A stretch of 32,680 bases of DNA from Patescibacteria group bacterium (lineage in GTDB: Bacteria > Patescibacteriota > Minisyncoccia > GWA2-38-13b), in NCBI GenBank assembly GCA_038065195.1, contig JBBTRL010000042.1:17735-50414 (forward strand), in the 5' to 3' direction. Shown here piece after piece: positions 1,871 through 29,403 of this stretch; within the stretch, counting starts at the first letter, position 1, and each line of letters begins with the position of its first letter. The translations under genes were made by a program, and so were the position numbers. Below the pieces are notes generated by a model. The model was given only the letters and a program-made list of their open reading frames with translations. It had not been told where the DNA came from and ran no database searches.

Positions 1871-1881
1871 TGGACTATGAA

Positions 1882-2011
1882 CCCCGTTAGAAATCTGATG
1901 ATTTTGTTTAATTATTATTAAAAAGCAATATGCTTAAAGATTCGTTTCAACAATCCAATAACGAGCAAAAAATTTCGGAAGAAAATTTTTTGCCCAAGAT
2001 TTCTAACGGGG
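1882..2011 (+). mobile_element. MITE-like start-codon element (family A), copy 1, at the dnaE start
   Basis: 15-bp perfect TIR CCCCGTTAGAAATCT/AGATTTCTAACGGGG; flanks ATGAA|...|TAAA; internal hairpin GCAAAAAATTT..AAATTTTTTGC; homologous to copy 4. Confidence 0.9.
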
Positions 2012-5000
2012 TAAATTTTACTCACCTCCATGTCCATAGTCATTTCTCGCTCCTTGACGGTCTCGCTAAAATAGACGAACTCTTGGATCGCGTCAAAGAG
2101 TTAGGAATGGATTCGGTGGCCCTTACCGATCACGGCGTAATGTATGGCGCGATTGAATTTTACAAAAAAGCGAAAGCGCGCGGAATAAAACCGATTATCG
2201 GAATAGAACTATATATTGCCCCGAATGGAATGTTGAATAAACGCCCAAAAATTGACGACAAAAGATATCATATAATACTTTTAGCCAAAAATAATATCGG
2301 ATATAAAAATCTCATTAAACTTACAACCCTTGCTCATCTGGAGGGTTTTTATTATAAACCGCGAATTGACAAAGAATTATTAAAAAAATATTCGGAAGGA
2401 TTGATAGGCGCAAGCGCCTGCGTTTCCGGAGAAATATCACGGCTCGCCATCGCCGGAAAATACGATGAAGCGGAAAAAGCCGCGCTTGAATACGAAAATA
2501 TTTTCGGCAAGGGAAATTTCTATCTTGAAATCGGATACCACCCAAACATACCGGAACAAAAAATAGCTAACGAAGCTTTAATTAAAATTGGCAAAAAAAA
2601 TAATATCGGAATTATAGCAACAAACGATATGCATTATTTAAAAAAGGAAGACGCTGAAGCGCAAGATATTTTATTGGCCATCCAAACGAAAAGTTTAATC
2701 AGCGATACCGACCGTCTAACGATGAAAGACGAAGATTTTTCAATGAAATCGCCGGAAGAAATGGCGAAAAACTTCGAAGATATTCCCGAAGCGCTGGAAA
2801 ACACGCAAAAAATAGCGGATTCGTGCGATCTGGAAATAGAACTTGGAAAAACTCAACTTCCCCACTTTGAAGTTCCCAATGGAAAAACCACTGACGAATA
2901 TCTCAAACAGTTATGCGCGGAAGGAATGGAAAAAAAATACGGGATAATAACCGATATTATTGCCCAACGATTAGAATACGAACTCTTGGTCATCAAGCAA
3001 ACTGGCTTCGCTTCTTATATTCTTATTGTATGGGATTTTGTCTCTTGGGCGAAAAACAATAATATAATTGTCGGACCGGGTCGCGGATCGGCTGCGGGCA
3101 GCATAGTTTCTTATTTATTGAATATTACCGCGATTGACCCGCTAAAATACAATCTGCTTTTTGAAAGATTCTTAAATCCGGAAAGAATCAGTATGCCAGA
3201 TATTGATTTAGATTTTGCCGATACCGGAAGAGACAAAGTTATAGAATATGTTTCTAAAAAATACGGCAAAGATCATGTGGCGCAAATTATCACCTTCGGG
3301 ACTATGGCGGCAAAAGCCGCGGTGCGCGATACGGGCAGAGTTTTAGGCTACCCATATGCTTTCTGCGATCAAACCGCGAAAATGATTCCAATGTTTATGT
3401 CTTTGGAGGAAGCGTTGAACAATGTTCCGGAGCTTAAACAAGCGTATAATTCAAATCCAGACACCAAGAAACTGATTGATTCGGCAAGAAAATTGGAAGG
3501 AGTGGCGCGCCATGCCTCAACGCATGCCTGCGGTGTTGTAATTACCAAAGAAAAATTAGAAAACTACGCTCCGCTTCAACGCGCTCCGCAAAACGAAAAC
3601 AGCGTTATCACGCAATACGAAATGCATGCCATAGAAGACTTGGGATTGCTTAAAATGGATTTTTTAGGACTTAAAAATCTGACTATAATTGAAACGGCGA
3701 TACAGATCATTAAAAATACTAAAAATGAAACTATTGATTTCAATACTATTCCATTGGATGACCAAAAAACATTTGAACTTTTTCAAAAAGGAAACACTAC
3801 CGGAATCTTCCAATACGAATCCGGCGGAATGAAAAGAAATTTACGCGCGCTAAAACCGACTGTATTTGAAGATCTGATAGCTATGAACGCTCTCTATCGT
3901 CCCGGACCGATGGAACACATCCCTGAATACATTGACGCCAAACACGGACGAAAAAAAATAAACTACTTGCATCCTAAAATGAAACCGATTCTTGAAAATA
4001 CTTACGGAGTCATAGTTTACCAAGAGCAAGTTTTGGAAATCGTCAAACAACTCGCCGGATTCAGCTATGGAGAGGCGGATGTATTAAGAAAAGCGGTGGG
4101 CAAAAAAATAAAATCCCTACTGGAAGAACAGAAAAATAAACTCATAGAAAAATTGACGAAAAACGGTATTGGCAATGAACTGACGGAAAAAATATGGAAC
4201 TTCATTGAACCATTCGCTCGTTATGGTTTTAATAAATCGCACAGCGCCTGCTATGCCACAATCGGCTATCAAACCGCTTATTTAAAAACGAATTACCCGA
4301 CGGAATTTATGGCGGCGCTGATGAATTCCGAACAAAATGATATTGAAAGAATTGCGGAAATTATCAAAGAATGCAATGATATGGACATAGAAGTATTACC
4401 GCCAAATATCAATGAAAGTTTTTCCAATTTTACCGTAGTAAACCAGAAACAAATAAGATTCGGGCTGGCTGCCGTTAAAAATGTCGGTGAAAATGTAGTG
4501 GCGGCTATCATCGCCGAACGCAAAGAAAATGGAAAATATAATAAAATTGAAGAATTTATAACACGGGTGCAATCAAAAGACCTTAATAAAAAATCTCTTG
4601 AATCGCTCGTCAAATGCGGCGCGACAGAAGAACTTGGCGAAAGAAAAAAACTGCTGGCAAATATTGAAGATCTTTTAAAATTAGCTCGAGATTTTCAAAA
4701 ATCCAAAGAACAGGGTCAATTCAGTCTGTTTGAAAATGCGCCATGCCTATCGGCAGGCAGGCAAAATAAAAATACTCTGCCCCCCATTCGCCTTAAAGAA
4801 AGTTTAGCCGCGACTAAAAACGAACGGCTCCAGTGGGAAAAAGAATTGCTGGGTCTTTATATATCGGAACATCCATTAAAAGAATTTAAAAATCAACTTG
4901 AAGCTCTTGATTCCATAAAAGAAATTCGATCAAAAACAGACGGAAATATAATATGCGGAGGCATTATAAATAAAATTAAAAAAATTCTTACGCGCCAAAA

Positions 5001-5445
5001 TCAAACAATGCTTTTTGTGGAAATGGAAGACCTTACCGGTCAAATAGAAATAATCGTATTCCCCCGCACCCTGGAATCCAATCCGCTTATTTGGCAAAAT
5101 GATAAAATGATTGTTGTTGAAGGCGCGATGAATAATAAAGACGGAGTACCAAAAATAATAGCCAATAAAACATACTTCTTGGAAGAATATTTAAAAAATG
5201 CCGCTAAAAAACCGGCTATCAAGCATTTGCAAATTAATCTGCAGAAAAATTCCGGAAATCGCTTAATGCAAGATTTGCAAAAAATATTCTCGGAGTTTCC
5301 TGCAGGTTCTACGCAAATATCAATTTCTATTCCTAACGACGGACCGAAACCAAATACCATTGAAACTCCTTATAAAATAAAATATGATGAAAGTATAATA
5401 ACAAAACTTAAACAAATGGGAATAAACGAAATACAAATAATTTAA
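1930..5445 (+). CDS. dnaE: DNA polymerase III alpha subunit (first 27-28 aa are element-derived)
   Basis: PHP motif FTHLHVHSHFSLLDG, plus GPGRGSAAGS, ERISMPDIDLDF, LLKMDFLGL, YGFNKSHS. Confidence 0.98.
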   Translation: MLKDSFQQSNNEQKISEENFLPKISNGVNFTHLHVHSHFSLLDGLAKIDELLDRVKELGMDSVALTDHGVMYGAIEFYKKAKARGIKPIIGIELYIAPNGMLNKRPKIDDKRYHIILLAKNNIGYKNLIKLTTLAHLEGFYYKPRIDKELLKKYSEGLIGASACVSGEISRLAIAGKYDEAEKAALEYENIFGKGNFYLEIGYHPNIPEQKIANEALIKIGKKNNIGIIATNDMHYLKKEDAEAQDILLAIQTKSLISDTDRLTMKDEDFSMKSPEEMAKNFEDIPEALENTQKIADSCDLEIELGKTQLPHFEVPNGKTTDEYLKQLCAEGMEKKYGIITDIIAQRLEYELLVIKQTGFASYILIVWDFVSWAKNNNIIVGPGRGSAAGSIVSYLLNITAIDPLKYNLLFERFLNPERISMPDIDLDFADTGRDKVIEYVSKKYGKDHVAQIITFGTMAAKAAVRDTGRVLGYPYAFCDQTAKMIPMFMSLEEALNNVPELKQAYNSNPDTKKLIDSARKLEGVARHASTHACGVVITKEKLENYAPLQRAPQNENSVITQYEMHAIEDLGLLKMDFLGLKNLTIIETAIQIIKNTKNETIDFNTIPLDDQKTFELFQKGNTTGIFQYESGGMKRNLRALKPTVFEDLIAMNALYRPGPMEHIPEYIDAKHGRKKINYLHPKMKPILENTYGVIVYQEQVLEIVKQLAGFSYGEADVLRKAVGKKIKSLLEEQKNKLIEKLTKNGIGNELTEKIWNFIEPFARYGFNKSHSACYATIGYQTAYLKTNYPTEFMAALMNSEQNDIERIAEIIKECNDMDIEVLPPNINESFSNFTVVNQKQIRFGLAAVKNVGENVVAAIIAERKENGKYNKIEEFITRVQSKDLNKKSLESLVKCGATEELGERKKLLANIEDLLKLARDFQKSKEQGQFSLFENAPCLSAGRQNKNTLPPIRLKESLAATKNERLQWEKELLGLYISEHPLKEFKNQLEALDSIKEIRSKTDGNIICGGIINKIKKILTRQNQTMLFVEMEDLTGQIEIIVFPRTLESNPLIWQNDKMIVVEGAMNNKDGVPKIIANKTYFLEEYLKNAAKKPAIKHLQINLQKNSGNRLMQDLQKIFSEFPAGSTQISISIPNDGPKPNTIETPYKIKYDESIITKLKQMGINEIQII
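4740..4762 (+). repeat. Short imperfect GC-rich palindrome (family D), in frame in the dnaE linker, encoding PCLSAGRQ
   Basis: GCCATGCCTATCGGCAGGCAGGC; 17/19 match to intergenic GCCATACCTACCGGCAGGC at 10114-10132. Confidence 0.65.
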
Positions 5446-5455
5446 TTTTTACATT

Positions 5456-6499: not shown

Positions 6500-8325
6500 A
6501 AAAAATAAATGAAATTGAAAAAATCCGCCACAGTTTAAGCCATCTTCTTGCGATAGCTGTTTTGGAAATTTTCCCGAACGCAAAACTTGGGATAGGACCA
6601 ATTATTGAAAACGGTTTTTATTACGACTTTGATCTGTCCGCCGTAGCTGAGAGCGAAGGCGGATTAACTCCCGATCAATTACCCAAAATAGAAAAAAGAA
6701 TGCGGGAACTTGTTAAAATGGGTTTATTATTTCAAAAAGAAATAATTGATTTCGCGAAAGCGAAAAAGACATTCAAAAACAAACCATATAAATTGGAATT
6801 AATTAAAGAAATAAATAAAAATAAACAGAAAATAACAGTATACAAAACATTCGCAAAATACCAAATACCAAATACCAAATACCAAATACAATTTACTTAC
6901 TTGTGCGCTGGACCGCATATTAAATCAACAAAAGAAATCAATCCCGCGGCTTTCAAACTGACTAAAGTCGCGGGCGCTTATTGGCGAGGCGATGAAAAAA
7001 ATAAAATGCTTACCCGTATTTATGGAATTGCTTTTAATTCAGAAAAAGAACTCAAAGAACATATTGAAATGCTTGAAGAAGTGGAAAAAAGAGATCATAG
7101 AAAATTAGGCAAAGAACTTGACCTTTTTACTTTCTCGGATGAAGTAGGTGCTGGGTTGCCTCTTTGGCTTCCTAAGGGAGAAACTATTCGTCACGAACTT
7201 GAAAAATGGGCGCGCGAAACGGAAAAAAAATGGGGGTATCAGCATATTGCAACACCGCATATCACCAAAAGTAAACTTTATGAAATCTCCGGTCATCTTC
7301 CTTATTATAAAGACGACCTTTATTCTCCCATTAACATTGAAGGAGAGGAATACTATTTAAAACCTATGAATTGTCCGCATACGCATATGATATATAACGC
7401 GCGGTTAAGAAGTTACCGCGAATTACCTTTGCGTCTCGCCGAATATGGGCAAGTCTACCGCTTTGAAAAATCTGGAACACTGCATGGCTTAATGCGTGTC
7501 CGCGGATTCTGCCAAAACGATGCTCATATATATGTTCAACCGGAAAAAGCGGTTGAAGAATTTATCAATGTTATAAAAATGCACGAATATTATTATAAAA
7601 CACTCGGTATCCAAAATTGGCGAGTGGTACTCGGAACTAGAGATCGTAAAAATTTAAGAAAAAAATATCATGGCAACGACGCAATGTGGGATATGGCCGA
7701 AAAATTATCAAAAGAAGCGCTTGAAAAATCGAGCATAAAATATGAAATTGAAGAGGGCGGAGCGGCGCATTACGGACCAAAAGCAGACATATATATACAA
7801 TCGGTTATCGGTAAAGAATATGCCATAGGCACCGACCAACTTGATCTCTATATGCCGCAACGGTTTAATTTGTCTTATATAGATAAAAACGGAAAAGAAA
7901 CGATGCCATACATCATACATCGCGCGCCATTGGGATCGCACGAAAGAATGATCGGATTTTTAATTGAACACTACGCAGGCGCTTTTCCAATATGGCTATC
8001 ACCCATTCAAGTCCGCATTGTTCCAATAAGCGAAAAATTCAATAAATATGGAATTGAAATTTTAGAAAAACTCAAGCAATTTGATATACGAGCGGAACTT
8101 GACGACAACAACGAAACTTTGGGGAAAAAAATAAGAGAAGGCGAAAAACAAAAAACGCCGTATTTGTTGATACTCGGCGGCAGAGAGGAAGAAAATAAAA
8201 CCGTCGGGGTTCGCCAACGCGGTAAAGGCGATATGGGCGAAATGAAAATGGTCGAATTCTTGGAAAAAATAAAAAATGAAATTAATAATAAAGATCTCCC
8301 GAAAGAGAATAATAAAAAATTATAA
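6496..8325 (+). CDS. thrS: Threonine--tRNA ligase (lacks the N-terminal TGS domain)
   Basis: RHSLSHLL, GFYYDFD, LCAGPH, RDHRKLG, LKPMNCP, IHRAPLGSHER. Confidence 0.98.
   Translation: MKKINEIEKIRHSLSHLLAIAVLEIFPNAKLGIGPIIENGFYYDFDLSAVAESEGGLTPDQLPKIEKRMRELVKMGLLFQKEIIDFAKAKKTFKNKPYKLELIKEINKNKQKITVYKTFAKYQIPNTKYQIQFTYLCAGPHIKSTKEINPAAFKLTKVAGAYWRGDEKNKMLTRIYGIAFNSEKELKEHIEMLEEVEKRDHRKLGKELDLFTFSDEVGAGLPLWLPKGETIRHELEKWARETEKKWGYQHIATPHITKSKLYEISGHLPYYKDDLYSPINIEGEEYYLKPMNCPHTHMIYNARLRSYRELPLRLAEYGQVYRFEKSGTLHGLMRVRGFCQNDAHIYVQPEKAVEEFINVIKMHEYYYKTLGIQNWRVVLGTRDRKNLRKKYHGNDAMWDMAEKLSKEALEKSSIKYEIEEGGAAHYGPKADIYIQSVIGKEYAIGTDQLDLYMPQRFNLSYIDKNGKETMPYIIHRAPLGSHERMIGFLIEHYAGAFPIWLSPIQVRIVPISEKFNKYGIEILEKLKQFDIRAELDDNNETLGKKIREGEKQKTPYLLILGGREEENKTVGVRQRGKGDMGEMKMVEFLEKIKNEINNKDLPKENNKKL
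6637..6663 (+). repeat. 27-bp hairpin insert, in frame in thrS (SAVAESEGG)
   Basis: TCCGCC-GTA-GCT-GAG-AGC-GAA-GGCGGA; same outer TCCGCC/GGCGGA stem as family B. Confidence 0.7.
6856..6890 (+). repeat. Heptamer tandem repeat (AAATACC)x4 + AAATACA inside thrS
   Basis: Directly visible; encodes KYQIPNTKYQIQ just before F-x-x-LCAGPH. Confidence 0.95.
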
Positions 8326-8436
8326 CTTTATTTTTGAAATAAACTAATTTACTTTGAATTACGAAACGCTTTAATTTAATTTTTCATAATTCAAGGTAAT
8401 TAAATTAGTTTATTTCAATAAAACATATAACATCTT

Positions 8437-10098: not shown

Positions 10099-10113
10099 AA
10101 TTACCAACCCAAA

Positions 10114-10193: not shown

Positions 10194-10224
10194 AATAATT
10201 TCCAGTTAAAATTTTATCTATAAA

Positions 10225-10319
10225 CCCCGTTAGATATCTTCCGTCGTTTTATACACAAAATATCCTAACAGGAAATAATCAAGCAAATATGCGAAAATCA
10301 TCAAAAATATCTAACGGGG
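10225..10319 (+). mobile_element. Family A start-codon element, copy 2, at the miaB start
   Basis: 13-bp TIR CCCCGTTAGATAT/ATATCTAACGGGG; flanks ATAAA|...|TGAA; GTG rebuilt at 10319. Confidence 0.9.
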
Positions 10320-11683
10320 TGAAATATCATATCACAACATTCGGCTGTCAAACAAATCAGTCCGATTCGGAAAGAATCGCAGCTATTTTAAATAAAATTG
10401 GTTTTAAACCAGCGCTTTCTCAAGATGACGCCGATTTCATAATCGCCAACGCTTGTTCCGTTCGGCAATCGGCGATTGATAGAATCCACGGCATCGCTCA
10501 TAAAATCCAAAAAAAGAAAAAAAGAGGCGAAAAAACATCAATCACCATTCTCACTGGTTGCGTTTTAGAACAAGACAGAAAAAAACTAGTTCAAAAATTT
10601 GATGCCATAATTGACATCCGAGAAATTGAAAAATTACCGCAAATAATAAAAAAATTGAGAAAAAATAAAAGCATAATCGCCGGCAGAGCAAAACATTCCG
10701 ATATACAACGATGGAAAACTGCCGAAAAATCTACCGATTATTTTAAGATTACTCCGTCTTACGAATCTTCTTTTTCCGCTTTTGTGCCAATAATGACCGG
10801 CTGTAATAATTTTTGCACTTATTGCGCCGTTCCCTATACGCGGGGAAAGGAAGTCTCTCGACCGACAATTAACATAATAAAAGAAGTGAAAAAATTAGTA
10901 AAAAACGGCTATAAGGAAATAACTTTATTGGGGCAAAATGTAAACTCTTACATTGATAACAACGAAAAAAATCCTAAAAATTTCGCCTGTCTGCTTAAAA
11001 TAGTTAATGAAATTCCGGGCGATTTTTGGATACGATTCCATTCTTCCCATCCGAAAGATTTTACGAACGAACTTATTGACACCATCGCTTCTTGCGAAAA
11101 AGTAACAAAATATATCAGCTTACCGGTTCAGGCCGGAAACGATAAAGTGCTTAAAAAAATGAACCGTCCGTATACTATTTTTCAATATAAAAAATTAGTA
11201 AAAAAAATACGGGAAAAAATTCCCAACGCGTCAATATCAACCGATTTTATCGTTGGATTTCCAAGCGAAACAAAAAAACAATTTCAGGACTCCATAAAAT
11301 TATTCAAAAATTTAAAATTTGATATGGCTTATATCGCGCAGTATTCTTCACGTTCAGGCACAACGGCAGAAAAGATTTTTAAAGATAATGTATCGCCCAA
11401 AGAGAAAGAACGGCGCGACCGCGAGCTTACAGCCGTTTTACGAAAAACATCGCTGAATATAAATAAAAAACTTGTCGGAACAACCCAACAAGTTTTAATT
11501 GAAAAAGAAATAAAACGGCAAAATGGCCATTGGCTAATCGGCAAAACGTGCGGATTTAAAACGGTAAAAATACCGCTTGCTTCCGATTCCGATAAAAAAC
11601 TAATCGGCAATTTTGCCGATGTCAAAATAATAAAAGCACTGGATATGGGACTTATCGGTAAAATCAACCAATTATTTCTTTAA
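10289..11683 (+). CDS. miaB: tRNA-i6A37 methylthiotransferase MiaB (start ATG 10289 or GTG 10319)
   Basis: TFGCQxNxxDSE, NACSVRQSA, radical SAM CNNFCTYC, TDFIVGFP, C-terminal TRAM domain. Confidence 0.9.
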   Translation: MRKSSKISNGVKYHITTFGCQTNQSDSERIAAILNKIGFKPALSQDDADFIIANACSVRQSAIDRIHGIAHKIQKKKKRGEKTSITILTGCVLEQDRKKLVQKFDAIIDIREIEKLPQIIKKLRKNKSIIAGRAKHSDIQRWKTAEKSTDYFKITPSYESSFSAFVPIMTGCNNFCTYCAVPYTRGKEVSRPTINIIKEVKKLVKNGYKEITLLGQNVNSYIDNNEKNPKNFACLLKIVNEIPGDFWIRFHSSHPKDFTNELIDTIASCEKVTKYISLPVQAGNDKVLKKMNRPYTIFQYKKLVKKIREKIPNASISTDFIVGFPSETKKQFQDSIKLFKNLKFDMAYIAQYSSRSGTTAEKIFKDNVSPKEKERRDRELTAVLRKTSLNINKKLVGTTQQVLIEKEIKRQNGHWLIGKTCGFKTVKIPLASDSDKKLIGNFADVKIIKALDMGLIGKINQLFL

Positions 11684-13169
11684 GTAAATCTGCCGCTATT
11701 TGCGGATTCGCCTTGCCTTTTGTTTCTCGCATAACTTGACCAATTAAAAACTGCAATGATGCCCCTTGTTTTTTTTTATAATCCTCTACGGCCTTGAAAT
11801 TATTTTTAATAACGGTTTTTACAATCTCCGTTAACGCTTCAATATCGCTTTCTTGCCCCATTCCCCTTTCTTCAATAATTTGCGACGGGTCATTGCCGGT
11901 TTTTACCATTTCGCGCAAAACCTCCTGCGCTCCGGACGACGAAATATCGCCTTTATGCGTTAAAATTATCAATTCCGCAAAATTTTCCGGACTGATTTTT
12001 ATTTCGCCATAATCCTCTATTCCGAATTCTCGCGCTAATTTCTGCAATTCCGTAATCAAATAATTCGCGGAAAGTTTTATAAGCCGCGCCGTATGTTCGC
12101 TTAAATTTTCTATTCTTACTTTATGCGCGTTTTTATCCCACGCCTGAATTTCCGAAATTACCTGCTCAAAATAATCACCCAATTCTTTATTAACAACGAA
12201 TATCTCAATATTTTCTTCCGGCAAACCATATTCTAACGCAAATCTTTTCCGTCTTTTTTGCGGCAATTCCGGTAAATTTGAGATTCGAGATTTGTCAGCC
12301 CGAGGCTGATCCGCCTTGGGCGGAAGATTTGAAATTTTCGATAATGGAATATCCGGTTCCGGAAAATACCGATAATCTTTCGCTGTTTCTTTTGCCCGCT
12401 GGGAAAATGTTTTTTGCTTATCCGCGTCCCAACCGCGCGTTTCCTGCGCAATTTTTTCGCCTTTTTCTAAAATTTCCGCCTGCCGTTCAATTTCGTAATC
12501 AATGGATTTTTCTACCGCCTTAAAAGAATTTAAGTTTTTAATTTCCGCTTTTGTTCCCAATTTCTTGTTTTTTGATAAAGAAATATTCACTTCGCACCTC
12601 ATTTGCCCTTTCTCCATATCAGCATCAGAAATTCCCAAATATCGAAAAATTAATTGAATTTCTTCGCAAAATTTTTTCGCTTCCGCGCCGGAAGAAATAT
12701 CCGGTTCGGTTACAAGCTCCATTAACGGCGCGCCAGCGCGATTAAAATCAACCAAACTATAATCTACGTTCTGCGGATGATAAAGCCGACCGGTATCTTC
12801 TTCTATGTGTATTTCCTTGATGCGAATTTTTTTACCGCCTATTTCAAAAAATCCGTTTTGGCACAACGGTTTCCAAAATTGTGAAATCTGGTATCCTTTT
12901 GGCAAATCGGGATAAAAATAATTTTTTCTGTCAAACTGAATAATTTCCGCCATTTCGCAGTTCAAAGATTTTCCGGTCAAAATAACCGATTCAACGGCTT
13001 TTTTATTCGGAACAGGTAATGTGCCCGGATGCCCCATACAAATAGGACAAACATTAATATTGGGATGCTTTTCGTCGGAATCATTCAAACACGCGCAAAA
13101 CATCTTGGTTTTTGTTTTTAATTCCGCATGTATTTCCAAACCGATTGTTGACTTAAATTTATTTAACAT
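11664..13169 (-). CDS. gatB: Asp-tRNA(Asn)/Glu-tRNA(Gln) amidotransferase subunit B
   Basis: IGLEIHAEL, CPICMGHPGTLP, FDRKNYFYPDLPKGYQISQ, DYRYFPEPD; likely start ATG 13169. Confidence 0.98.
   Translation of the reverse strand: MLNKFKSTIGLEIHAELKTKTKMFCACLNDSDEKHPNINVCPICMGHPGTLPVPNKKAVESVILTGKSLNCEMAEIIQFDRKNYFYPDLPKGYQISQFWKPLCQNGFFEIGGKKIRIKEIHIEEDTGRLYHPQNVDYSLVDFNRAGAPLMELVTEPDISSGAEAKKFCEEIQLIFRYLGISDADMEKGQMRCEVNISLSKNKKLGTKAEIKNLNSFKAVEKSIDYEIERQAEILEKGEKIAQETRGWDADKQKTFSQRAKETAKDYRYFPEPDIPLSKISNLPPKADQPRADKSRISNLPELPQKRRKRFALEYGLPEENIEIFVVNKELGDYFEQVISEIQAWDKNAHKVRIENLSEHTARLIKLSANYLITELQKLAREFGIEDYGEIKISPENFAELIILTHKGDISSSGAQEVLREMVKTGNDPSQIIEERGMGQESDIEALTEIVKTVIKNNFKAVEDYKKKQGASLQFLIGQVMRETKGKANPQIAADLLKEIIG
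12295..12324 (-). repeat. 30-bp double-hairpin element (family B), in frame in gatB (PPKADQPRAD)
   Basis: TCCGCC-CAA-GGCGGA TCAGCC-TCG-GGCTGA, two perfect 6-bp stems, nested in degenerate AAATCTC-like heptamers. Confidence 0.9.
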
Positions 13170-13180
13170 ATTTGGTATAT

Positions 13181-13744
13181 TTAAAACAATACGGAACTGC
13201 AAGTATCAAGCTCGCGGTTTACCAATTTATCCGCTTGTTTATTCCCATCGCGTAAAATATGACGAAAAACAATCAGCGAAAAATCAATTTTTAAATTCCA
13301 GAGTTGCAAAAACAAACTCTGGATTTTTTTATCCAAAACTTTGTATTTTCCGGTAATCTGCTTGAATAAAAGTTCGGAATCAACTAAAACTTCCACTTCC
13401 CTATTCTTAACGCCGACTTTCCCCAAAAGCGCTTTTGTCTTTTTTAAAGCGAAAATCACGGCTTCATACTCCGCTTCATTGTTGGTCTTTTCACCCAAAT
13501 ACTGCGAATATTCTTTAATATTTCCATTATATTCAATTACAACTCCCGAAGCCGACGGTCCGGGATTTCCACGCGATCCGCCGTCGCAATGGATAATCAC
13601 TCTATTCACCCCGTTAGAAGTCTGTTTTACCCGATTATTATGATTTACTTCAGACATAATTCGTTTTTTTTGTACATTCCCCGTTAATCTAATGCGGAAA
13701 AAATTGTTAAATTTTTTCCGCCAAGGACTTCTAACGGGGCTCAT
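13181..13744 (-). CDS. rnhA: Ribonuclease HI (core begins at GTG 13609; the upstream 45 codons are element-derived)
   Basis: CDGGSRGNPGPSASG, TNNEAEYEA, DSELL, NKQADKLVN. Confidence 0.92.
   Translation of the reverse strand: MSPVRSPWRKKFNNFFRIRLTGNVQKKRIMSEVNHNNRVKQTSNGVNRVIIHCDGGSRGNPGPSASGVVIEYNGNIKEYSQYLGEKTNNEAEYEAVIFALKKTKALLGKVGVKNREVEVLVDSELLFKQITGKYKVLDKKIQSLFLQLWNLKIDFSLIVFRHILRDGNKQADKLVNRELDTCSSVLF
13609..13739. mobile_element. Family A start-codon element, copy 3, at the rnhA start (in frame; appears inverted relative to copies 1 and 4)
   Basis: 14-bp TIR CCCCGTTAGAAGTC/GACTTCTAACGGGG; gene-strand flanks ATGAG|...|TGAA; internal hairpin GCGGAAAAAATT-GTTA-AATTTTTTCCGC. Confidence 0.9.
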
Positions 13745-15485: not shown

Positions 15486-16715
15486 TTATTTAAGCGCTTC
15501 AATCCCCGGTAATTTATTTTCCGCCAAATATTCCAGCATAGCGCCGCCACCCGTAGAAATATAAGAAAATTTATCCAAAATACCCATTTTACTGATCGCA
15601 GCAATGGTATCTCCGCCACCTACTATTGAATAAGCGCCCGATTTGCTTATGGCCCCGGCTATAGCTTTTGTTCCGTTTGAAAATATTTCCATATCGGCGC
15701 GTCCCATCGGACCATTCCAAATAATTGTTTTGGATTCTCTGATTAAGGAACAAAACAAATCCACGCTTCGCCCTCCTATATCTAAAATAATATCGTCCCT
15801 TGAAACACTGCCAATCTGCACGGCTGTCGCGCCACTGGCTCCGTCTAAATCTTTAGACACGACGACATCAACCGGAACCGTAAATTTTATATTCGCCACT
15901 TTCATTTTTTTAATCGCCGGAATAACTTCTGGACTGATTATTGAACGACCAACTTCTTCGCCTTTAACCGATAAAATGGTATTTGCCACAACGCCGCCCA
16001 GTATTATAAAATCCGCTTTCGGTAAGAAATTACCAATTACTCTAACTTTTGTTTCGGCTTTTAAACCGCCAATTATTACAGTTACCGGATGCGCGGGATT
16101 TTTAAGCGCTTTATCCAAAATATCAATTTCTTTTGCCAAAGATAAACCAACGAAAGAAGGTAAAAATTCAGTTATCGCCTCAACCGAAGCGTGCGCCCTA
16201 TGGCATACGCTAAAAGCATCATTCACAAAAATATCGGCAAATGACGCTAATTTTTCGGCAAATTTTTTATTATTATTTTCTTCTTCTTTATAAAAACGGA
16301 TATTCTCCAAAAGACAAATTTTATCGCAATTAATATTTTTTAATTCGCGTATATCGTCTTCGATGAAATTAATTTTTTCTCCGATAATATCTTCTAAATG
16401 ACCTATTAAAGGCTTTAAACTATAAGCTTTATGCCATTCACCATTAGGTCTGCCGAGATGCGAAACTAAAATAATTTTATTGCCATCTTTCAGAAGAAAT
16501 TTTATTGTTGGCAATGCTGATTTAACGCGATAATCTTCATCGCTCAAAACTTTGCCATCTGCCGTAGGCAGATTAAAATCAACCCGCAAAAGAACGGTTT
16601 TATTTTTAATTTTACTGTTTTTTAGTAATTTCACCCCGATAGAAGTCCTTGGTAAAAAATTTCCTTCCGAATTTTTTTGTTTGCCATTAAGTTGTTGAAA
16701 TGAATTCTTGAGCAT
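15486..16715 (-). CDS. pgk: Phosphoglycerate kinase (start ATG 16715 or GTG 16634)
   Basis: LRVDFNLP, SHLGRP, LLENIRF, NDAFSVCHRAHAS, WNGPMG, GGGDT, STGGGAMLE. Confidence 0.97.
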   Translation of the reverse strand: MLKNSFQQLNGKQKNSEGNFLPRTSIGVKLLKNSKIKNKTVLLRVDFNLPTADGKVLSDEDYRVKSALPTIKFLLKDGNKIILVSHLGRPNGEWHKAYSLKPLIGHLEDIIGEKINFIEDDIRELKNINCDKICLLENIRFYKEEENNNKKFAEKLASFADIFVNDAFSVCHRAHASVEAITEFLPSFVGLSLAKEIDILDKALKNPAHPVTVIIGGLKAETKVRVIGNFLPKADFIILGGVVANTILSVKGEEVGRSIISPEVIPAIKKMKVANIKFTVPVDVVVSKDLDGASGATAVQIGSVSRDDIILDIGGRSVDLFCSLIRESKTIIWNGPMGRADMEIFSNGTKAIAGAISKSGAYSIVGGGDTIAAISKMGILDKFSYISTGGGAMLEYLAENKLPGIEALK

Positions 16716-16763
16716 ATTGCTTTTAATAATAATTAAATTAAAATCATTGGACTTCTAGCGAAG
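16634..16763 (-). mobile_element. Family A start-codon element, copy 4 (degenerate TIR), at the pgk start
   Basis: CTTCGCTAGAAGTCC...GGACTTCTATCGGGG; 130 bp like copy 1 and alignable throughout; flanks ATAAA|...|TGAA. Confidence 0.88.
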
Positions 16764-16879: not shown

Positions 16880-17740
16880 TTGACAGATTTACTGACAAAA
16901 ACGCTTATAAAAATTATATCGATAAAACTAATAAAAAAACTGGCTTGGAAAATAATTGCTCATAAATTTATTGCGGGCGAAGAGATGGAAGATGCGTTAT
17001 ATGAAGCCAATAATTTAAATAAAAAAGGCATTGCGGCGATAATAAATTATCTCGGTGAGAAAGTTAAAACTTCAGAAGAAGTTCGTAAAAACACAAATAT
17101 ATACACTCATCTTATAAGAGAAATCTCTTGCGCAAATTTAAACGCCAAAATCAGCGTTAAACCATCGCAATTGGGTTTAAAAATTAACGAAAATCTGTAT
17201 TTTGAAAATCTGTTTTCCATAGGCACATTATGTTGTCAATATAATGTGCGAATGGAAATAGATATGGAAGAATTTTCCGAAATTGAAAAAACAGTGCAAA
17301 ATTCCATACAACTCAAAAAAGCCCTGCCAAATTTGCATCTTCGTCAATGCCTGCAAATTGCGGCAAAACGAAGCGCTGAAGATATAAAAAAATTGACTGA
17401 TGTTGGTATTCATATACGGCTTTGCAAGGGCGCATATAAAATACCGCATTCTGAGGCATTATTGCCAAAATATTATACGCCATACAGAATAATAGCCTAT
17501 GCAAATTGTGCTTTCATGCCATTTATAGAAGTAGCAACGCATAATACGAAAATAATAAATGCCCTAAAAAACGATATTGGCATACAATTTTTACGAGGTT
17601 TTTGCGCGCAAGAAATCCCGATATTGCAATTATCCGGACATCCAGTGGCAGTTTATGTCCCGTTCGGACCGGAGTGGGTGCCATATGGAGTCCGAAGATT
17701 GTTTTATTTAATAAAAAATCGAGATAAAATTTTTGAGTGA
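16880..17740 (+). CDS. Monofunctional proline dehydrogenase family flavoprotein
   Basis: KFIAGE, ISVKPSQLGL, IDME, IRLCKGAY, VATH, VYVPFGPEWVPYxxRRL; TTG start with strong RBS. Confidence 0.88.
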   Translation: MTDLLTKTLIKIISIKLIKKLAWKIIAHKFIAGEEMEDALYEANNLNKKGIAAIINYLGEKVKTSEEVRKNTNIYTHLIREISCANLNAKISVKPSQLGLKINENLYFENLFSIGTLCCQYNVRMEIDMEEFSEIEKTVQNSIQLKKALPNLHLRQCLQIAAKRSAEDIKKLTDVGIHIRLCKGAYKIPHSEALLPKYYTPYRIIAYANCAFMPFIEVATHNTKIINALKNDIGIQFLRGFCAQEIPILQLSGHPVAVYVPFGPEWVPYGVRRLFYLIKNRDKIFE

Positions 17741-21660: not shown

Positions 21661-21667
21661 CAATTTT

Positions 21668-21676: not shown

Positions 21677-21677
21677 T

Positions 21678-21711: not shown

Positions 21712-21740
21712 AAATCTATTTGAGTAATAAATAAAATATT

Positions 21741-22205: not shown

Positions 22206-22279
22206 TTTATAACCTCCTATCATTATAAACTTATGGGAACTACGGCAATCGTATTGACAAAAATCACAAATGAGATAAT

Positions 22280-23733: not shown

Positions 23734-23759
23734 AAATAAAAAAATATTTATAATATTTT

Positions 23760-25037: not shown

Positions 25038-25055
25038 AATAATAAAATAATATTA

Positions 25056-25511: not shown

Positions 25512-26004
25512 TATTGTTTTTTAACAACTTAAAACTCTCAAGCGCCTTAATGGTAGCTCTAGCATTATTAAGTTTATTTGACGAACCGAGTATTTTTCCT
25601 ACAACATCGACTATTCCAGCCAAAGAACATACAACTCGCACAGCGCCTCCGGCAATAATCCCCCTCCCACTAACCGCCGGCTTTAATAGAATACTAGCGC
25701 TTCCATATTTCATTCTAACTTCATGCGGTATGGTTCCTTTGATAATTTTCACAAAAGTCAATCGTTTTTTCGCTTTTTCCACGGCTTTATCAACCGCGCC
25801 GGAAACATCAACGCCCTTGGCTGATCCAACTCCAACTCTTCCTTGACGATCGCCAACGACAACCGTAGCCCTAAAACGAAATCTTTTTCCTCCGGCGACC
25901 ACACGAGCCACTCTTCTTATTTCCAGTAAAGACTGCTCAATCCCTCCTTCTCTTGGAGAAAACTTTTCTGTCTTTTTTCTAAATTGTCCCGATCTTTGAT
26001 CCAT
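25480..26004 (-). CDS. rpsE: 30S ribosomal protein S5
   Basis: RVARVVAGGKRFRF, VVVGD, GIIAGGAVR. Confidence 0.97.
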   Translation of the reverse strand: MDQRSGQFRKKTEKFSPREGGIEQSLLEIRRVARVVAGGKRFRFRATVVVGDRQGRVGVGSAKGVDVSGAVDKAVEKAKKRLTFVKIIKGTIPHEVRMKYGSASILLKPAVSGRGIIAGGAVRVVCSLAGIVDVVGKILGSSNKLNNARATIKALESFKLLKNNNADSSNKTNS

Positions 26005-26024
26005 ATAATATTACGGCTAAATTA

Positions 26025-26354
26025 TTAAAAACTTAATCCTTCTTCTCGCGCGCCATCCGCCACTGCTTTTATCTTTCCATGATATTTAAATCCACCGCGA
26101 TCAAAAGTTACATTTTTTATTTTAACATCTTTAGCTTTTTTTGCCATTTCCTTACCCAGCTCTTTTGATTTTTCCAAAATAGTGCGACCCAATTTAATTT
26201 TCTTTGTATTTCCGGAAACCAAAGTGCAACTTAATTGATCATCAATGATTTGAGCGTATAAATATTTATTTGATCTAAATACAGAAAATCGCGGACGCTC
26301 CTTTGCCCCCTTAACCTTAGCCCTTATTCTTTTGTGCCGCCATTTACGATTCAT
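26025..26354 (-). CDS. rplR: 50S ribosomal protein L18
   Basis: RPRFSVFRSNK, FDRGGFKYHGKIKA; likely start ATG 26354. Confidence 0.95.
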   Translation of the reverse strand: MNRKWRHKRIRAKVKGAKERPRFSVFRSNKYLYAQIIDDQLSCTLVSGNTKKIKLGRTILEKSKELGKEMAKKAKDVKIKNVTFDRGGFKYHGKIKAVADGAREEGLSF

Positions 26355-26364
26355 AGAAAACCCT

Positions 26365-26910
26365 TTAAAATCCCGAACCAATAGCTTTTTTACCGGCTTT
26401 TTGCCTTACATATTCTCCGACATAACGAATACCCTTTCCTTTATACGGCTCCGGTTTCTTCATATCGCGAATTTTCGCCGCTATTTCACCAACTAATTGA
26501 TTATCAATACCGGAAACGGTAATTATATTCTTTTCCACATTAAAAGCAATGCCTTGAGGAGCAGTAATTTCCATAGGGTGCGAAAAACCCAATAACAAAA
26601 TCAATTTATTCCCCTGAACACTTGCCCGATAACCTACGCCTTTGATTTCAAGCTGTCGACTAAAACCGCTTACCGCTCCCTTGACGGCATTGGAAACCAA
26701 CGCATTAATAAGTCCCCATATGGCCATTGTTTTTTTTTCTTTTGATTTTGGAAACAAGAAAAATTCCTTTGCTTCCAATTTAAATTCCAATACTGACGGA
26801 ATTTCCACAGAAATCTCGCCTTTTGGGCCTTTAACCCTGGCAATATTCGCTTCAATCCTAAAGTCAACATTATCCGGAATATTAATTTTTCGCTTACCTA
26901 TATGAGACAT
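26365..26910 (-). CDS. rplF: 50S ribosomal protein L6
   Basis: MSHIGK, VKGPKG, GVGYRA, PEPYKGKGIRY; start ATG 26910. Confidence 0.97.
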   Translation of the reverse strand: MSHIGKRKINIPDNVDFRIEANIARVKGPKGEISVEIPSVLEFKLEAKEFFLFPKSKEKKTMAIWGLINALVSNAVKGAVSGFSRQLEIKGVGYRASVQGNKLILLLGFSHPMEITAPQGIAFNVEKNIITVSGIDNQLVGEIAAKIRDMKKPEPYKGKGIRYVGEYVRQKAGKKAIGSGF

Positions 26911-26999
26911 GGAATAATCTCGAATATACGAATACTCGCAAATATACAAATAACATATTCGTATATTAGTTTAAAATTCGTATATTCGCGAATAGTTCT
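26911..26999. repeat. Palindromic CGAATATA-unit spacer element (family C), copy 1, between rpsH and rplF
   Basis: Direct CGAATATA-like units followed by inverted TATATTCG-like units; alignable with 28561-28641. Confidence 0.85.
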
Positions 27000-27389
27000 T
27001 TACCACACTTCGCAAATAATTTCTCCTCCTATTTTATTTTTAATCGCATCTTTATTGGTCATCAAGCCCAGAGGAGTGGAAATTATACTCATTCCATAAC
27101 CATTTAAAATCGGTTTTATTTTATCATATCCGATATAAATTCTTTGCCCGGACTTACTAATTCGCCGTATATTTCTAATAACCGGTTTATTATTCAAATA
27201 TTTTAATGCCAACACTATCTTTCGGCCAATTCCATTACCGCTTATTTCCGCCTGCGCTATATAACCATTATTCAATAACAATTTCGCCAATTCAAATTTA
27301 AAAGCGGAAAAGGGAACATTAACGGTTTCTTTTCCAACCGCCTGATTATTGCGTATTCTTGTTAACATATCGGATATTGGATCGGTCAT
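27000..27389 (-). CDS. rpsH: 30S ribosomal protein S8
   Basis: MTDPISDMLTRIRN, IISTPLGLMT, GGEIICEVW. Confidence 0.98.
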   Translation of the reverse strand: MTDPISDMLTRIRNNQAVGKETVNVPFSAFKFELAKLLLNNGYIAQAEISGNGIGRKIVLALKYLNNKPVIRNIRRISKSGQRIYIGYDKIKPILNGYGMSIISTPLGLMTNKDAIKNKIGGEIICEVW

Positions 27390-27393
27390 TGCA

Positions 27394-27457
27394 ATCTAAA
27401 GTCTAAAATCTAAAATTTAAAGTTAGATTTAAGATTTTACATTTAAAATTTAAAATT
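27394..27457. repeat. Heptamer ATCTAAA-type direct plus inverted repeat tract
   Basis: ATCTAAA GTCTAAA ATCTAAA ATTTAAA, then TTAGATT TAAGATT TTACATT TAAAATT TAAAATT. Confidence 0.7.
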
Positions 27458-27478
27458 GAATTACCTTTGGCAACGAAT

Positions 27479-27664
27479 TTACCATGAAGATTTTTTAATT
27501 CCGGGAATCTCTCCCTTATTCGCCAATTCCCTAAAACAAATACGACATAGATCAAACATTCTCATATAACCGCGTCTCCGCCCGCACCTAAAACATCGCC
27601 GTATGATACGAGTTGAATACTTTGGTTTCTTTTTTGCTTTTGCTATCCAAGCAGCTGTTGCCAT
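27479..27664 (-). CDS. rpsN: 30S ribosomal protein S14, Zn-binding type Z
   Basis: [26 protein letters not shown]. Confidence 0.97.
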
Positions 27665-27683
27665 AAATATTTAAACTATTAAT

Positions 27684-28226
27684 CTATTTACTTTTTAACG
27701 GAAATCCCAACGCTTCAAATAATACTTCCGCCTCCTCTTTATTTTTAGCACTAGTAACTATATTAACTTCCAAGCCAAAAATTTTTCTTATATCATCAGA
27801 TGAGGCTTCCGGAAAAATTACATGCTCCTTAATCCCAATATTCAAATTTCCATTCTGATCAATATTTTTCCTGTCAATACCCCGAAAATCACGACTCCTC
27901 GGAAAAGCGATATTAATCAAACGACACAAAAAATCATACATTTTATTGCCATGCAATGTAACTTTCAAACCGGCGGGCATACCTTGCCTAATCTTAAAAG
28001 CGGAAATTGATTTTTTGGCCGCCACCAAAACCGGCCATTGTCCGGTTATCAAACTTAAATCTTTCCTGATATCCTCAATCATACCGCTCTCCTTGGCTAT
28101 TCTGCCTATGCCCGTATTTACTACAACCTTGATTATTTTCGGACAAGACATAATGTTTTTATAACCCAACTTCTCCAGTATCGCCGGTACCGCCTCTTTT
28201 TTATATTTTTCCTGTAAATCAAACAT
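27684..28226 (-). CDS. rplE: 50S ribosomal protein L5
   Basis: KVVVNTGIG, ITGQ, FKIRQG, RDFRG, IFPE. Confidence 0.97.
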   Translation of the reverse strand: MFDLQEKYKKEAVPAILEKLGYKNIMSCPKIIKVVVNTGIGRIAKESGMIEDIRKDLSLITGQWPVLVAAKKSISAFKIRQGMPAGLKVTLHGNKMYDFLCRLINIAFPRSRDFRGIDRKNIDQNGNLNIGIKEHVIFPEASSDDIRKIFGLEVNIVTSAKNKEEAEVLFEALGFPLKSK

Positions 28227-28254
28227 TTTTAATTTTATTTATACAATATTCCGA

Positions 28255-28560
28255 TTATATTTCCTGATTGCATTTCTTGCAAATTCTGTATTTTTTATTC
28301 TCCGTTATTTTATATCCTATTCTCGCGGCTTTACCGCATTTTGAACAAACTAATTTAGCATTAGAAGCATCAATGTATCCGGGAATTTCCAATCGCTGAC
28401 CCTTTTCTCCTTGGCGCTTTGGACGCACATGTTTCTTCATTATAAACACTCCTTCCACCATTATTCTTTTTTTGTTCGGCAAAACACGAAGAATTTTCCC
28501 CTTTTTTCCCTTATCTTTTCCGCTTATTATTAAAACCGTATCTCCTTTTTTTAATTTCAT
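28255..28560 (-). CDS. rplX: 50S ribosomal protein L24
   Basis: KKGDTVLIISGKDKGKKG. Confidence 0.97.
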   Translation of the reverse strand: MKLKKGDTVLIISGKDKGKKGKILRVLPNKKRIMVEGVFIMKKHVRPKRQGEKGQRLEIPGYIDASNAKLVCSKCGKAARIGYKITENKKYRICKKCNQEI

Positions 28561-28641
28561 AGAGTAATCACGAATATACGAATGTACACAAATATACGAA
28601 TTCGTATATTATTTAAAATTTGTGTATTCGTGAATAGTCCT
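28561..28641. repeat. Family C spacer element, copy 2, between rplN and rplX
   Basis: CACGAATATACGAAT...AATATACGAATTCGTATATT...TATTCGTGAATAG; homologous to 26911-26999. Confidence 0.85.
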
Positions 28642-29007
28642 TTAAACTATTTCACTGGCCATTGAAACGATAGTATCATAACCCCTTTCTTTAATTTCTC
28701 TCGGTATCGGCCCGAATATGCGCCCACCTTTCGGTTCTTTCCCGTCCAACAAAACAACAGCATTATCGTCAAATCTTATATATGAACCGTCTTTTCTTCT
28801 AAACTCTTTTCTTTGTCGCACAAGAAGCGCCTTAACAATATCTTTTTTCTTTACAGCTTTTCGTGGTAAAGCTTTTTTCACCGAAGCGACGATTACATCT
28901 CCTATTCTAGCATAACGCCGCCTTGTTCCGCCCAATACCTTAAAACACTGGACCATTAAAGCTCCCGAATTATCCGCTACCCTAAGTTGTGAACGAGGCT
29001 GAATCAT
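28642..29007 (-). CDS. rplN: 50S ribosomal protein L14
   Basis: [34 protein letters not shown]. Confidence 0.98.
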
Positions 29008-29010
29008 TTG

Positions 29011-29328
29011 TTATATATTTTCTTTTTTTTTATTATTAATTAATTGTTTTACAATCCACCTTTTTTCTTTTGACAATGGCCTACACTCTTCAATTACAAC
29101 CCGATCTCCAATCTTATATTCATTTCCTTCGTCATGAGCTTTAAAATTCTTACTGACAGTAAAATACTTATGATAACGAGAATGCTTTTTAAGAACATCT
29201 ATTCTAACCACTATAGTCTTGTCCATTTTATCGGATACCACGATGCCCTTAAGCCGCCTTTTTTTTATTACATTATCGGTGTTTTTTATATCCACCCCGT
29301 TAGAAATTTTTTGCCCTTGTGATTCCAT
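29011..29328 (-). CDS. rpsQ: 30S ribosomal protein S17 (start ATG 29328 or GTG 29295)
   Basis: [30 protein letters not shown]. Confidence 0.96.
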
Positions 29329-29396
29329 AAAATTCTTTACTTAATTCAATATTATTATATTTTCCCGCAAAATCAATAATAAGATTTCTAACGGGG
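29295..29396 (-). mobile_element. Family A start-codon element, copy 5, at the rpsQ start
   Basis: 13-bp TIR CCCCGTTAGAAAT/ATTTCTAACGGGG; perfect flanking duplication ATGGA|...|TGGA. Confidence 0.92.
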
Positions 29397-29403
29397 TCCA
29401 TAT

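Follow-up and report, generated by a model that had tools for sequence, protein, structure and literature searches.

Miniature inverted-repeat elements in the start codons of a Patescibacteria genome, with GTG rebuilt at most junctions

Five inverted-repeat elements at gene starts in the window

The DNA analyzed here, referred to as the window, is the 32,680-nucleotide stretch from position 17735 to position 50414 of contig C42 in G000, a metagenome-assembled genome (MAG) of a Patescibacteria group bacterium that comprises 808,814 bp in 102 contigs, has a G+C content of 36.7%, and is 94% complete. It contains five copies of a short inverted-repeat element, located at dnaE, a miaB-like gene, rnhA, pgk, and rpsQ. 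With up to one mismatch allowed, the end sequence CCCCGTTAGA matched the window nine times against an expectation of 1.27, a number reached in 0 of 100 shuffles, and the matches paired up into five elements, each at the 5' end of a long open reading frame (ORF). Perfect 10-nt ends were present in four of the five; the pgk copy was degenerate, with CTTCGCTAGA on the gene-distal side and TCTATCGGGG on the gene side. The end matches and the flanks confirmed the five elements of the original prediction, and Pfam upheld its gene names, with miaB as MiaB-like.

With a slash marking the place of the element, the gene-strand flanks are ATGAA/TAAA at dnaE, ATAAA/TGAA at the miaB-like gene, ATGAG/TGAA at rnhA, ATAAA/TGAA at pgk, and ATGGA/TGGA at rpsQ. 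The dnaE element (window positions 1882 to 2011, plus strand, 130 bp) lies between ATGAA at 1877 to 1881 and the duplicate TAAA at 2012 to 2015; its junction codon is GTA (2011 to 2013), an in-frame ATG lies inside it at 1930, and it belongs to the main family in the minority orientation (fold z of -7.2). The element of the miaB-like gene (10225 to 10319, plus strand, 95 bp) is preceded by a sequence decayed to ATAAA (10220 to 10224) and followed by the duplicate TGAA (10320 to 10323), with a GTG junction at 10319 to 10321 and an in-frame internal ATG at 10289 (fold z of -5.0). On the minus strand, the rnhA element (13609 to 13739, 131 bp) is flanked by ATGAG (13744 to 13740) and the duplicate TGAA (13608 to 13605). 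Its junction is GTG (13609 to 13607), the frame is open from the ATG at 13744 through the whole element, and it is a main-family copy in the majority orientation (fold z of -6.2). The pgk element (16634 to 16763, minus strand, 130 bp), the one with degenerate ends, lies between a sequence decayed to ATAAA (16768 to 16764) and the duplicate TGAA (16633 to 16630), with a GTG junction at 16634 to 16632 and an in-frame internal ATG at 16715 (fold z of -3.6). The element at rpsQ, which encodes ribosomal protein S17 (29295 to 29396, minus strand, 102 bp), lies between ATGGA (29401 to 29397) and the duplicate TGGA (29294 to 29291); its junction is GTG (29295 to 29293), an internal in-frame ATG is present at 29328, a short ORF upstream ends 4 nt ahead of the GTG, and the fold z is -3.6.

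Counted from the junction codon, the Pfam domains begin at residue 5 (PHP domain of polymerase III alpha), residue 2 (UPF0004 of the MiaB-like radical-SAM protein), residue 2 (RNase H), residue 5 (PGK), and residue 17 (S17). An in-frame ATG was found inside the element in all five window copies; this feature, the GTA of dnaE, and the open frame of rnhA had been overlooked in the original prediction. A search of the window with Rfam 15 at the gathering score gave 0 matches.

Empty orthologous sites in a sister genome

A second genome of the same genus, G001, is syntenic with G000 at about 80 to 85% nucleotide identity and lacked all five window elements. At four of the five sites it had uninterrupted ATGAA or ATGGA starts, namely, GGAATATGAAATTCACC at dnaE, TTTATTTATGAAATATCG at the miaB-like gene, and AAAAATATGAAATTGTTAAAA at pgk (each ATGAAA) and AAATATGGAAAAAAAT at rpsQ (ATGGAA), so that the empty ATGNA sites looked for were found; the rnhA start was ATGACC and element-free. 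The 4-bp word that is doubled in G000 was single at the empty sites. Because the orthologous starts are empty in G001, the five window elements are true insertions, and the empty sites bore out the proposal that insertion into ATGNA duplicates TGNA, the terminal G of the element and the duplicated TG then forming GTG.

The reverse case was also observed, in that two start codons of G001 carry elements where G000 has the plain ATGAA sites ATGAAATATT and ATGAAAAATC. Three start codons were occupied in both genomes (C100_10546, C22_21838, and C12_14973). At C22_21838 the family and orientation were alike, and at C12_14973 a 129-bp copy in G000 stood against a 78-bp copy of another subfamily in G001. 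Altogether, nine insertions of those checked were specific to G000, of which four were outside start codons (two in pilin genes and two intergenic), two were specific to G001, and three sites were occupied in both. Contigs spanning the elements from three DNA runs (two studies) held no empty-allele joints, a result of little weight since contigs drop rare variants.

A different insert of approximately 110 bp, with the GC-rich inverted ends CACCCTTCGC and GCGAAGGGG, was observed in G001 about 25 nt upstream of the rnhA start (G001:C17, L003) and was absent from G000. A similar hairpin-flanked insert lies upstream of the second pilin gene in G001.

Genome-wide census in G000

Ends were paired across G000 at up to two mismatches and then curated by hand, a procedure that needs near-intact ends and so misses decayed copies. 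This gave 44 elements of 26 to 218 bp in the 0.81-Mb genome, several of them nested or in tandem, with terminal inverted repeats of 10 to 14 nt of the form CCCCGTTAGA(AGTC) and TCTAACGGGG. A start codon was the site of 25 of the 44. When positions were measured from the first start codon of each ORF with 80 or more codons, 21 of the 44 copies were at offset -1, which corresponds to the junction GTG, and no other offset held more than two, so that the copies are not random with respect to start codons. The original prediction had placed the family only at start codons, which is true of all five copies in the window; genome-wide, the excess at starts held and the exclusivity did not, as other contexts were also occupied.

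The expectation that each copy rebuilds GTG was correct for 22 of the 25 start copies, in which an ORF of 60 or more codons follows the junction GTG. The other three, including dnaE, read GTA; all three have an in-frame ATG 10 to 27 codons upstream, inside the element, and would have to start there. In 14 of the 22 GTG copies the frame is closed 4 to 6 codons before the junction and contains no other ATG, GTG, or TTG, and in those copies the junction GTG is the sole start available upstream of the conserved N terminus. The old upstream ATG was kept in 16 of the 25 start copies, decayed in seven (ATA in four, ACG in two, and AGG in one), and unclear in two. A duplication of TATG that kept the ATG was observed at one paired copy (C98_7733) and one unpaired end (C91_910).

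Three further observations concern individual copies. The start copy at G000 C99:3860-3955 is interrupted by a scaffold gap of 10 N, and its left and right flanks do not match (TTTA and TGCA, respectively); its assignment is less certain. At G000 C34:10519-10683, a main-family copy harbors a nested mini element that has the variant ends CCCTGATAGAAAC and GTTTCTATCAGGG and duplicates TAAA, and there is thus a sister end type. Copies of the main 130-bp family (e.g., window positions 13609 to 13739) have an internal third half-site, TTAACGAGG/TTAACGGGG, after hairpin 1, and this family looks like an old composite of an element of approximately 65 bp and extra sequence.

Target duplication and target motif

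The target was characterized in three samples: the 44 copies of G000; 22 elements in G010, a genome of another family, retrieved from 20 of its 31 listed sites; and a cross-phylum sample. The last came from a scan for CCCCGTTAGAA and TTCTAACGGGG separated by 50 to 80 nt, with one genome per species, which returned at least 120 stretches and covers only copies of 72 to 102 bp with perfect 11-nt ends. It comprised 126 elements at least 90 nt from the end of a locus, in 120 loci, and related genomes within it are not independent. Perfect 4-bp direct repeats flanked 25/44, 17/22, and 79/126 elements in the three samples, respectively, and pairs with one mismatch added 15, 3, and 17. The duplications were mostly TNNA (TGAA, TAAA, TCAA, and TCCA), with CTTG, TATG, and CCAG also seen. 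It had been noted originally that the boundary could equally be read as ACCCC..GGGGT with a 2-bp duplication. This alternative was rejected and the 4-bp duplication retained because CTTG, TATG, and CCAG occur as duplications, in which case the bases beside CCCC and GGGG are not A and T.

A purine precedes the TNAA duplication in 22/22 cases in G000, 11/14 in G010, and 61/64 in the cross-phylum sample (72/77 in a first count; P = 3e-16). Since TNAA duplications nearly always follow a purine, the target is R/TNAA, a loose motif, and the words used are ATGAA, GTCAA, and GTAAA, the latter two reading TTGAC and TTTAC on the opposite strand. ATGAA is the commonest gene start in G000. Elements occupied 21 of approximately 209 ATGAA starts, 2 of approximately 87 ATGGA starts, and 2 of approximately 470 other ATGNN starts, and the sequence preference is considered real because ATGAA starts were occupied far above the others. 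Unoccupied ATGAA was present at 188 starts, at 347 places in spacers, and at 2,551 places within genes.

Insertions at -35 hexamers, in pilin genes, and in spacers

Sigma-70 promoters were scored as a match of at least 4/6 to TTGACA starting with TT, a spacer of 16 to 18 nt, and a match of at least 4/6 to TATAAT with A2 and T6. This pattern started at the first base after the element at 7 of the 88 ends in G000, compared with a sum of 19 over offsets 1 to 44. By eye, such junctions read GGGG/TTGACA or TTTACA, 16 to 17 nt, and then (TGn)TAnnnT.

Three copies are inserted in frame in pilin-like genes (C12_4650, C12_6497, and C91_5861), where the element and its 4-nt duplication add 110+4, 104+4, and 110+4 nt (114, 108, and 114). 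Their junctions read ACG GGG/TTT ACx, encoding Thr-Gly/Phe-Thr-Leu-(Val/Ile)-Glu, which is the Gly/Phe cleavage site. In G001 the orthologue of C12_4650 has an uninterrupted leader, MIKNQNFG/FTLVE. The C12_4650 product matched TIGR02532 (prepilin N-terminal cleavage/methylation domain) at 20.7 bits against a cutoff of 16.3, the match spanning the element-encoded Gly. The pseudopilin matches of C91_5861 were below threshold, and C12_6497 was assigned as a pilin by motif only. Spacer copies include four mini elements of 26 to 34 bp, barely more than both ends.

In two other genomes, element ends adjoin tRNA-like sequence, including the T-arm-like GGAGTTCGATTCTCC (G002:C16:6607-6788 and G040:C19:23079-23125), and these may be insertions beside or inside tRNA genes.

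Distribution across genomes and phyla

The end TTCTAACGGGG was present in 26 of the 41 genomes of the class, with 60 ends in G000, 75 in G010, 32 in G040, 28 in G028, 27 in G002, and 20 in G001, compared with 0 to 3 per genome for the reversed pattern. The proportion of ends followed by TGRA differed among genomes (12/60 in G000, 5/20 in G001, 7/27 in G002, 13/75 in G010, 3/12 in G032, 0/28 in G028, and 0/32 in G040); G040 had TATG duplications at three starts instead. Of the 22 elements of G010, eight were at offset -1 of a long ORF, with no more than four at any other offset, and one was an in-frame insertion of 84 nt within a glycosyltransferase gene. The promoter pattern adjoined 7 of the 44 ends, in either orientation of the element, compared with a mean of about 1 or less at other offsets.

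The family had been expected in related Parcubacteria, and confinement to that group proved wrong. The 80 record titles listed named Patescibacteria/Parcubacteria, Planctomycetota, Deltaproteobacteria/Thermodesulfobacteriota, Nitrospirae/Thermodesulfovibrionia, Gammaproteobacteria, KSB1, Cloacimonadota, Omnitrophota, Ratteibacteria, and Clostridia, and the carrier records among the matches listed included a 1.2-Mb contig and a complete 3.3-Mb genome. The 11-nt ends were identical across phyla in this sample. Long ORFs began at offset -1 for 22 of the 126 elements, with no other offset holding more than four, and the promoter pattern adjoined 14 of the 252 ends compared with 31 summed over 44 other offsets. 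Examples include the start of rpmJ (L36) in a Doudnabacteria MAG and a pilin Gly/Phe insertion in a Planctomycetia MAG. A scan of viral contigs found one short copy only.

Search for a partner enzyme

That distant phyla have the same 11-nt ends points to a widely shared mobilizing enzyme. A full-length element with these terminal repeats and a transposase, which the original prediction proposed to look for, was not found in G000 or in the complete 3.3-Mb carrier genome. In G000, long end pairs were absent and no end lay at the tip of a contig, and between the distant ends of the 3.3-Mb genome (57 ends) there were only ordinary genes, among them those for a histidine kinase, a radical-SAM protein, and an acyltransferase. 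Among the 41 genomes of the class, NF033539 (IS1380) and PF13358 (DDE_3) were each found in none. PF13843 (piggyBac-type DDE) was likewise found in 0 of 41, and this was uninformative since the control genomes were also silent. PF01609 (DDE_Tnp_1) was present in 3 of 41 genomes, all of them MITE poor (MITE, miniature inverted-repeat transposable element), and PF00665 (rve) was present in 11 of 41, its occurrence being uncorrelated with the number of copies. The rve-type (integrase-core) ORF of G000, encoding 389 amino acids at C78:1069-2238 on a 2.4-kb contig, does not have the ends of the family. In another carrier genome, the IS1380 copies are bounded by different end sequences.

RNA structure and expression

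All five window copies are predicted to fold as a closed rod with paired ends (z from -3.6 to -7.2), in which the base of the stem holds both the old AUGA and the new GUG. The main family showed no consistent outward promoter (4 of 17 copies gene-ward and 2 of 17 on the control strand), and a promoter scan of the window gave none in the rnhA or pgk copies. As there is no consistent promoter, transcription most likely runs from the native promoter through the element. Coupling of short ORFs to the GTG was not consistent either: the stops lay 32 to 147 nt before the GTG in all copies except rpsQ (4 nt). Bypass of the element by the ribosome from the upstream ATG to the GTG is unlikely, as the upstream ATG has been lost in 7 of the 25 start copies. 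RNA-run contigs covered the gene bodies of dnaE, the miaB-like gene, rnhA, and pgk, with none across an element, and were uninformative on starts. G000 encodes RNase III (139.6 bits). According to a 2024 review of prokaryotic MITEs, RNase III cuts Correia-containing mRNAs at the terminal inverted repeats (PMC10969869). By analogy, RNase III may cut the terminal stem of the element and free the GUG on a short leader.

Other features of the window

An unrelated short repeat, a GC-rich hairpin containing CCGCCCAAGGCGGACCAACCTCGGGCTGGG, was observed downstream of genes at window positions 1805 to 1855, approximately 6855 to 6891, and approximately 12283 to 12337. It is present at more than 10 places in G001 at 84 to 97% identity and may be a terminator-like repeat family. 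At positions 12180 to 13247, the summed contig depth rose 4- to 10-fold in all three DNA runs, which is probably due to a conserved or repeated stretch common to other organisms.

Why start codons are occupied

The explanation we favor, and hold to be moderately probable, is that a non-autonomous MITE persists by signal-regenerating insertion, that is, by the coincidence of its target motif with host signals combined with survival in a compact genome. It builds on observations of the repeat structure and the duplication, on the mobility and positions of the copies, and on the target motif and the signs of selection. A MITE of the form CCCCGTTAGAA..TTCTAACGGGG would insert at R/TNAA and duplicate 4 bp. 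Insertion after ATGAA would yield ATGAA-element-TGAA, in which the last G of the element and the TG make an in-frame GTG at the native start position. At TTGAC and TTTAC targets, the duplication would restore the -35 hexamer right after the element, and in pilin genes the terminal GGG of the element would encode the Gly before Phe+1. Most other insertions would be purged from the compact genome, with survivors piling up at the signal-regenerating sites, and it is for this reason that the start-codon bias is ascribed mainly to motif coincidence and survival. By crude gene calls, the median intergenic gap is 74 bp. In leaderless genes the spacer would be essentially all promoter, and an insertion would be tolerated only in the start codon or at the -35 hexamer's outer edge, both of which are target words that regain their signal through the duplication. 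The start used would be the GTG or an internal ATG, and the mover would be an unseen transposase.

Several features point to selection after insertion. No Shine-Dalgarno-like tetramer was present at the occupied starts (0/25), compared with 47/187 ATGAA genes (P = 0.0017) and 129/753 genes overall. Main-family copies were oriented 12:3 (P = 0.035); the three minority copies have an in-frame ATG 27 codons upstream, and two of them are without the GTG. The junction GTG was lost only where an internal ATG exists (3/3), and the pilin and glycosyltransferase copies are in frame.

Other results weigh against this explanation. By crude gene calls (779 ORFs of at least 80 amino acids with first-ATG starts, covering 86% of the genome), the occupancy of ATGAA at starts (21 of approximately 209) was far above that of intergenic ATGAA (1 of approximately 348, namely, C19_1610; P = 9e-9), with 4 of approximately 448 for intergenic GTAAA, and the motif alone is therefore insufficient. 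Motif and survival together suffice only if most intergenic sites are constrained, which is argued from compactness. A greater age of start-codon copies was rejected: mismatches in the terminal repeats averaged 0.92 in start copies and 0.79 in the others, and since decay is similar, the start copies do not look longer lived. Five of the nine G000-specific insertions checked are at starts (five start, four other), so the bias is already present in young copies. The start of C12_14973, which holds different elements in the two genomes, could reflect repeated use of one site. The insertion chemistry itself is inferred, as no transposase with these ends was found. Given the similar decay, the bias in G000-specific copies, and C12_14973, active targeting and functional retention are kept as rivals. 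The original prediction left open whether the start codon serves as a safe site by targeting or by survival bias; its core proposal of insertion stands, its exclusivity does not, and the choice between the two causes has been narrowed only.

A broader possibility, which we put forward tentatively, is a transposon family that spans phyla and has both its ends (..GGGG) and its target (R/TNAA) adapted to signal-regenerating insertion, with start codons, -35 hexamers, and the prepilin Gly/Phe site serving as safe harbors. Such a family would possibly home to initiation sites and might be moved by a single-copy enzyme without flanking repeats, in the manner of RAYT enzymes, which have been proposed to move REP sequences.

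It is rather unlikely that insertion is actively targeted, with a transposase guided to sites of transcription or translation initiation (promoter-bound RNA polymerase, or the distortion at the edge of the open complex) and selection only trimming the outcome. In that case -35 edges and the start codons of leaderless genes would receive far more insertions than the remaining R/TNAA sites. In its favor, ATGAA at starts is occupied 12- to 39-fold over intergenic ATGAA and GTAAA, and a -10-like hexamer 4 to 8 nt upstream, the leaderless spacing, was found at 15 of the 25 occupied starts compared with 263 of 753 genes (P = 0.018). Both orientations of the element are found at -35 edges in G010, the bias extends to lineage-specific insertions, C12_14973 holds different elements in two genomes, and the three TATG cases of G040 use another register at starts. 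However, operon-internal starts such as rpsQ, without a promoter, are also occupied, and in the cross-phylum sample many copies are found upstream of genes at other distances. Strong filtering after insertion is indicated by the lack of Shine-Dalgarno genes (0/25) together with the orientation bias. Moreover, a single sequence target covers ATGAA, TTGAC, and TTTAC alike, and no guide is needed for the choice of words.

We regard as more doubtful still the idea that copies are kept by positive selection as expression modules, whether as regulated starts, as leader peptides, as structured 5' leaders, or as sites bound by a factor at the conserved ends. Consistent with such domestication, the start copies are all at least 95 bp and the 26- to 34-bp mini elements all lie elsewhere (0/25 versus 4/19; P = 0.029), the pairing of hairpin 1 is kept by compensatory changes among copies, three start sites are occupied in both G000 and G001, and the 11-nt ends are identical across phyla. 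The REP2 and Borrelia IR repeats offer a precedent (PMC3184786). Yet the compensatory changes may come from evolution of a source copy rather than from selection in place, and in the sister genome the orthologous starts function with no element present. The affected genes are unrelated housekeeping genes, and neither an outward promoter (4/17 gene-ward versus 2/17 on the control strand) nor coupling of a short ORF to the GTG is consistent.

That the repeats are not mobile DNA, being a native 5' leader or N-terminal extension common to these genes or a product of chance, has next to no probability: the in-frame ATG in all five window copies, one of them fully open in frame, would fit it, but it is refuted by the precise empty sites with a single 4-bp word in the sister genome, and the end count reached in 0/100 shuffles, the reversed-pattern count of 0 to 3 per genome against up to 75 real ends, and the nested and tandem copies also speak against it.

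Relation to known elements and significance

By structure and behavior the family is a MITE, in that five of six defining features are present: the copies have terminal inverted repeats and a 4-bp duplication, are small and multicopy without an internal transposase gene, and show presence/absence polymorphism. For the sixth, an autonomous partner, the genomes searched yielded no candidate. Correia elements are similarly short, noncoding, and multicopy, with terminal inverted repeats, a target duplication, and an RNA hairpin, and often lie just upstream of genes. Their duplication is TA, they carry sigma-70 promoters as well as an IHF site, and they are known only from Neisseria. The present family differs in its 4-bp duplication at R/TNAA, the lack of a consistent promoter, and ends common to several phyla; the two are set apart by these described features. 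Ends beginning CC(C) and duplications with T..A outer bases, of 4 to 5 bp in IS1380 and TTAA in piggyBac, are known from those groups, and the CC.. ends and 4-bp T..A duplication found here are reminiscent of them. Integron attC sites have the core box RYYYAAC first and GTTRRRY last. This identity was rejected for the present family, in which GTTAGAA and TTCTAAC are in the opposite order (GTT first) and the copies are solitary with 4-bp duplications, not arrayed.

The MITE review describes insertion sites as normally intergenic and contains no mention of "start codon" or "initiation codon" (PMC10969869). It also describes the Rickettsia palindromic elements, mobile palindromic repeats that persist in frame inside protein-coding genes of a reduced genome (PMC10969869). 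The pilin copies and the one in a glycosyltransferase gene of G010 are alike in persisting in frame. The Rickettsia elements differ, by description, in that they sit inside coding regions, and for them the splitting of a start codon or the regeneration of a signal by terminal bases is undescribed. The Neisseria REP2 and Borrelia IR repeats lie at the 5' ends of genes with their own start codon fused to the ORF, and REP2 has no terminal inverted repeats and carries a promoter and a ribosome-binding site as well as an ATG, according to one report (PMC3184786). In contrast, the present elements have terminal inverted repeats and no consistent promoter, their start consists of one element base and the duplicated host TG, and their insertion is proven by the empty sites. 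A REP2-type repeat was rejected because terminal inverted repeats are present and 14 of the 22 GTG-junction copies are without an internal start codon. The literature search found no description of a start-codon MITE or of the end sequences (unrelated primers and the like only); ISfinder, supplements, and subscription papers lay outside this search. The type of element is ordinary; what appears to be new is the occupation of start codons with a rebuilt GTG (approximately 10% of ATGAA starts in G000), the use of -35 and prepilin sites, and the identity of the ends across phyla.

The family shows how selfish DNA can persist in a genome with almost no dispensable sequence, by inserting where the duplication and its own terminal bases rebuild the signal that was split. 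In approximately 3% of the genes of G000 (25 of some 780 crude calls), the coding sequence opens with a GTG made by the transposon or with an N-terminal extension that the element encodes. Starts of this kind will be misplaced by gene callers, and the repeat will confound annotation in many uncultured lineages. The occupied starts also provide a natural experiment on translation initiation without a Shine-Dalgarno sequence, where a stable hairpin immediately precedes the start codon. If the family is indeed adapted to signal-regenerating insertion across phyla, it would mark the first known case of a bacterial mobile element that specializes in start codons.

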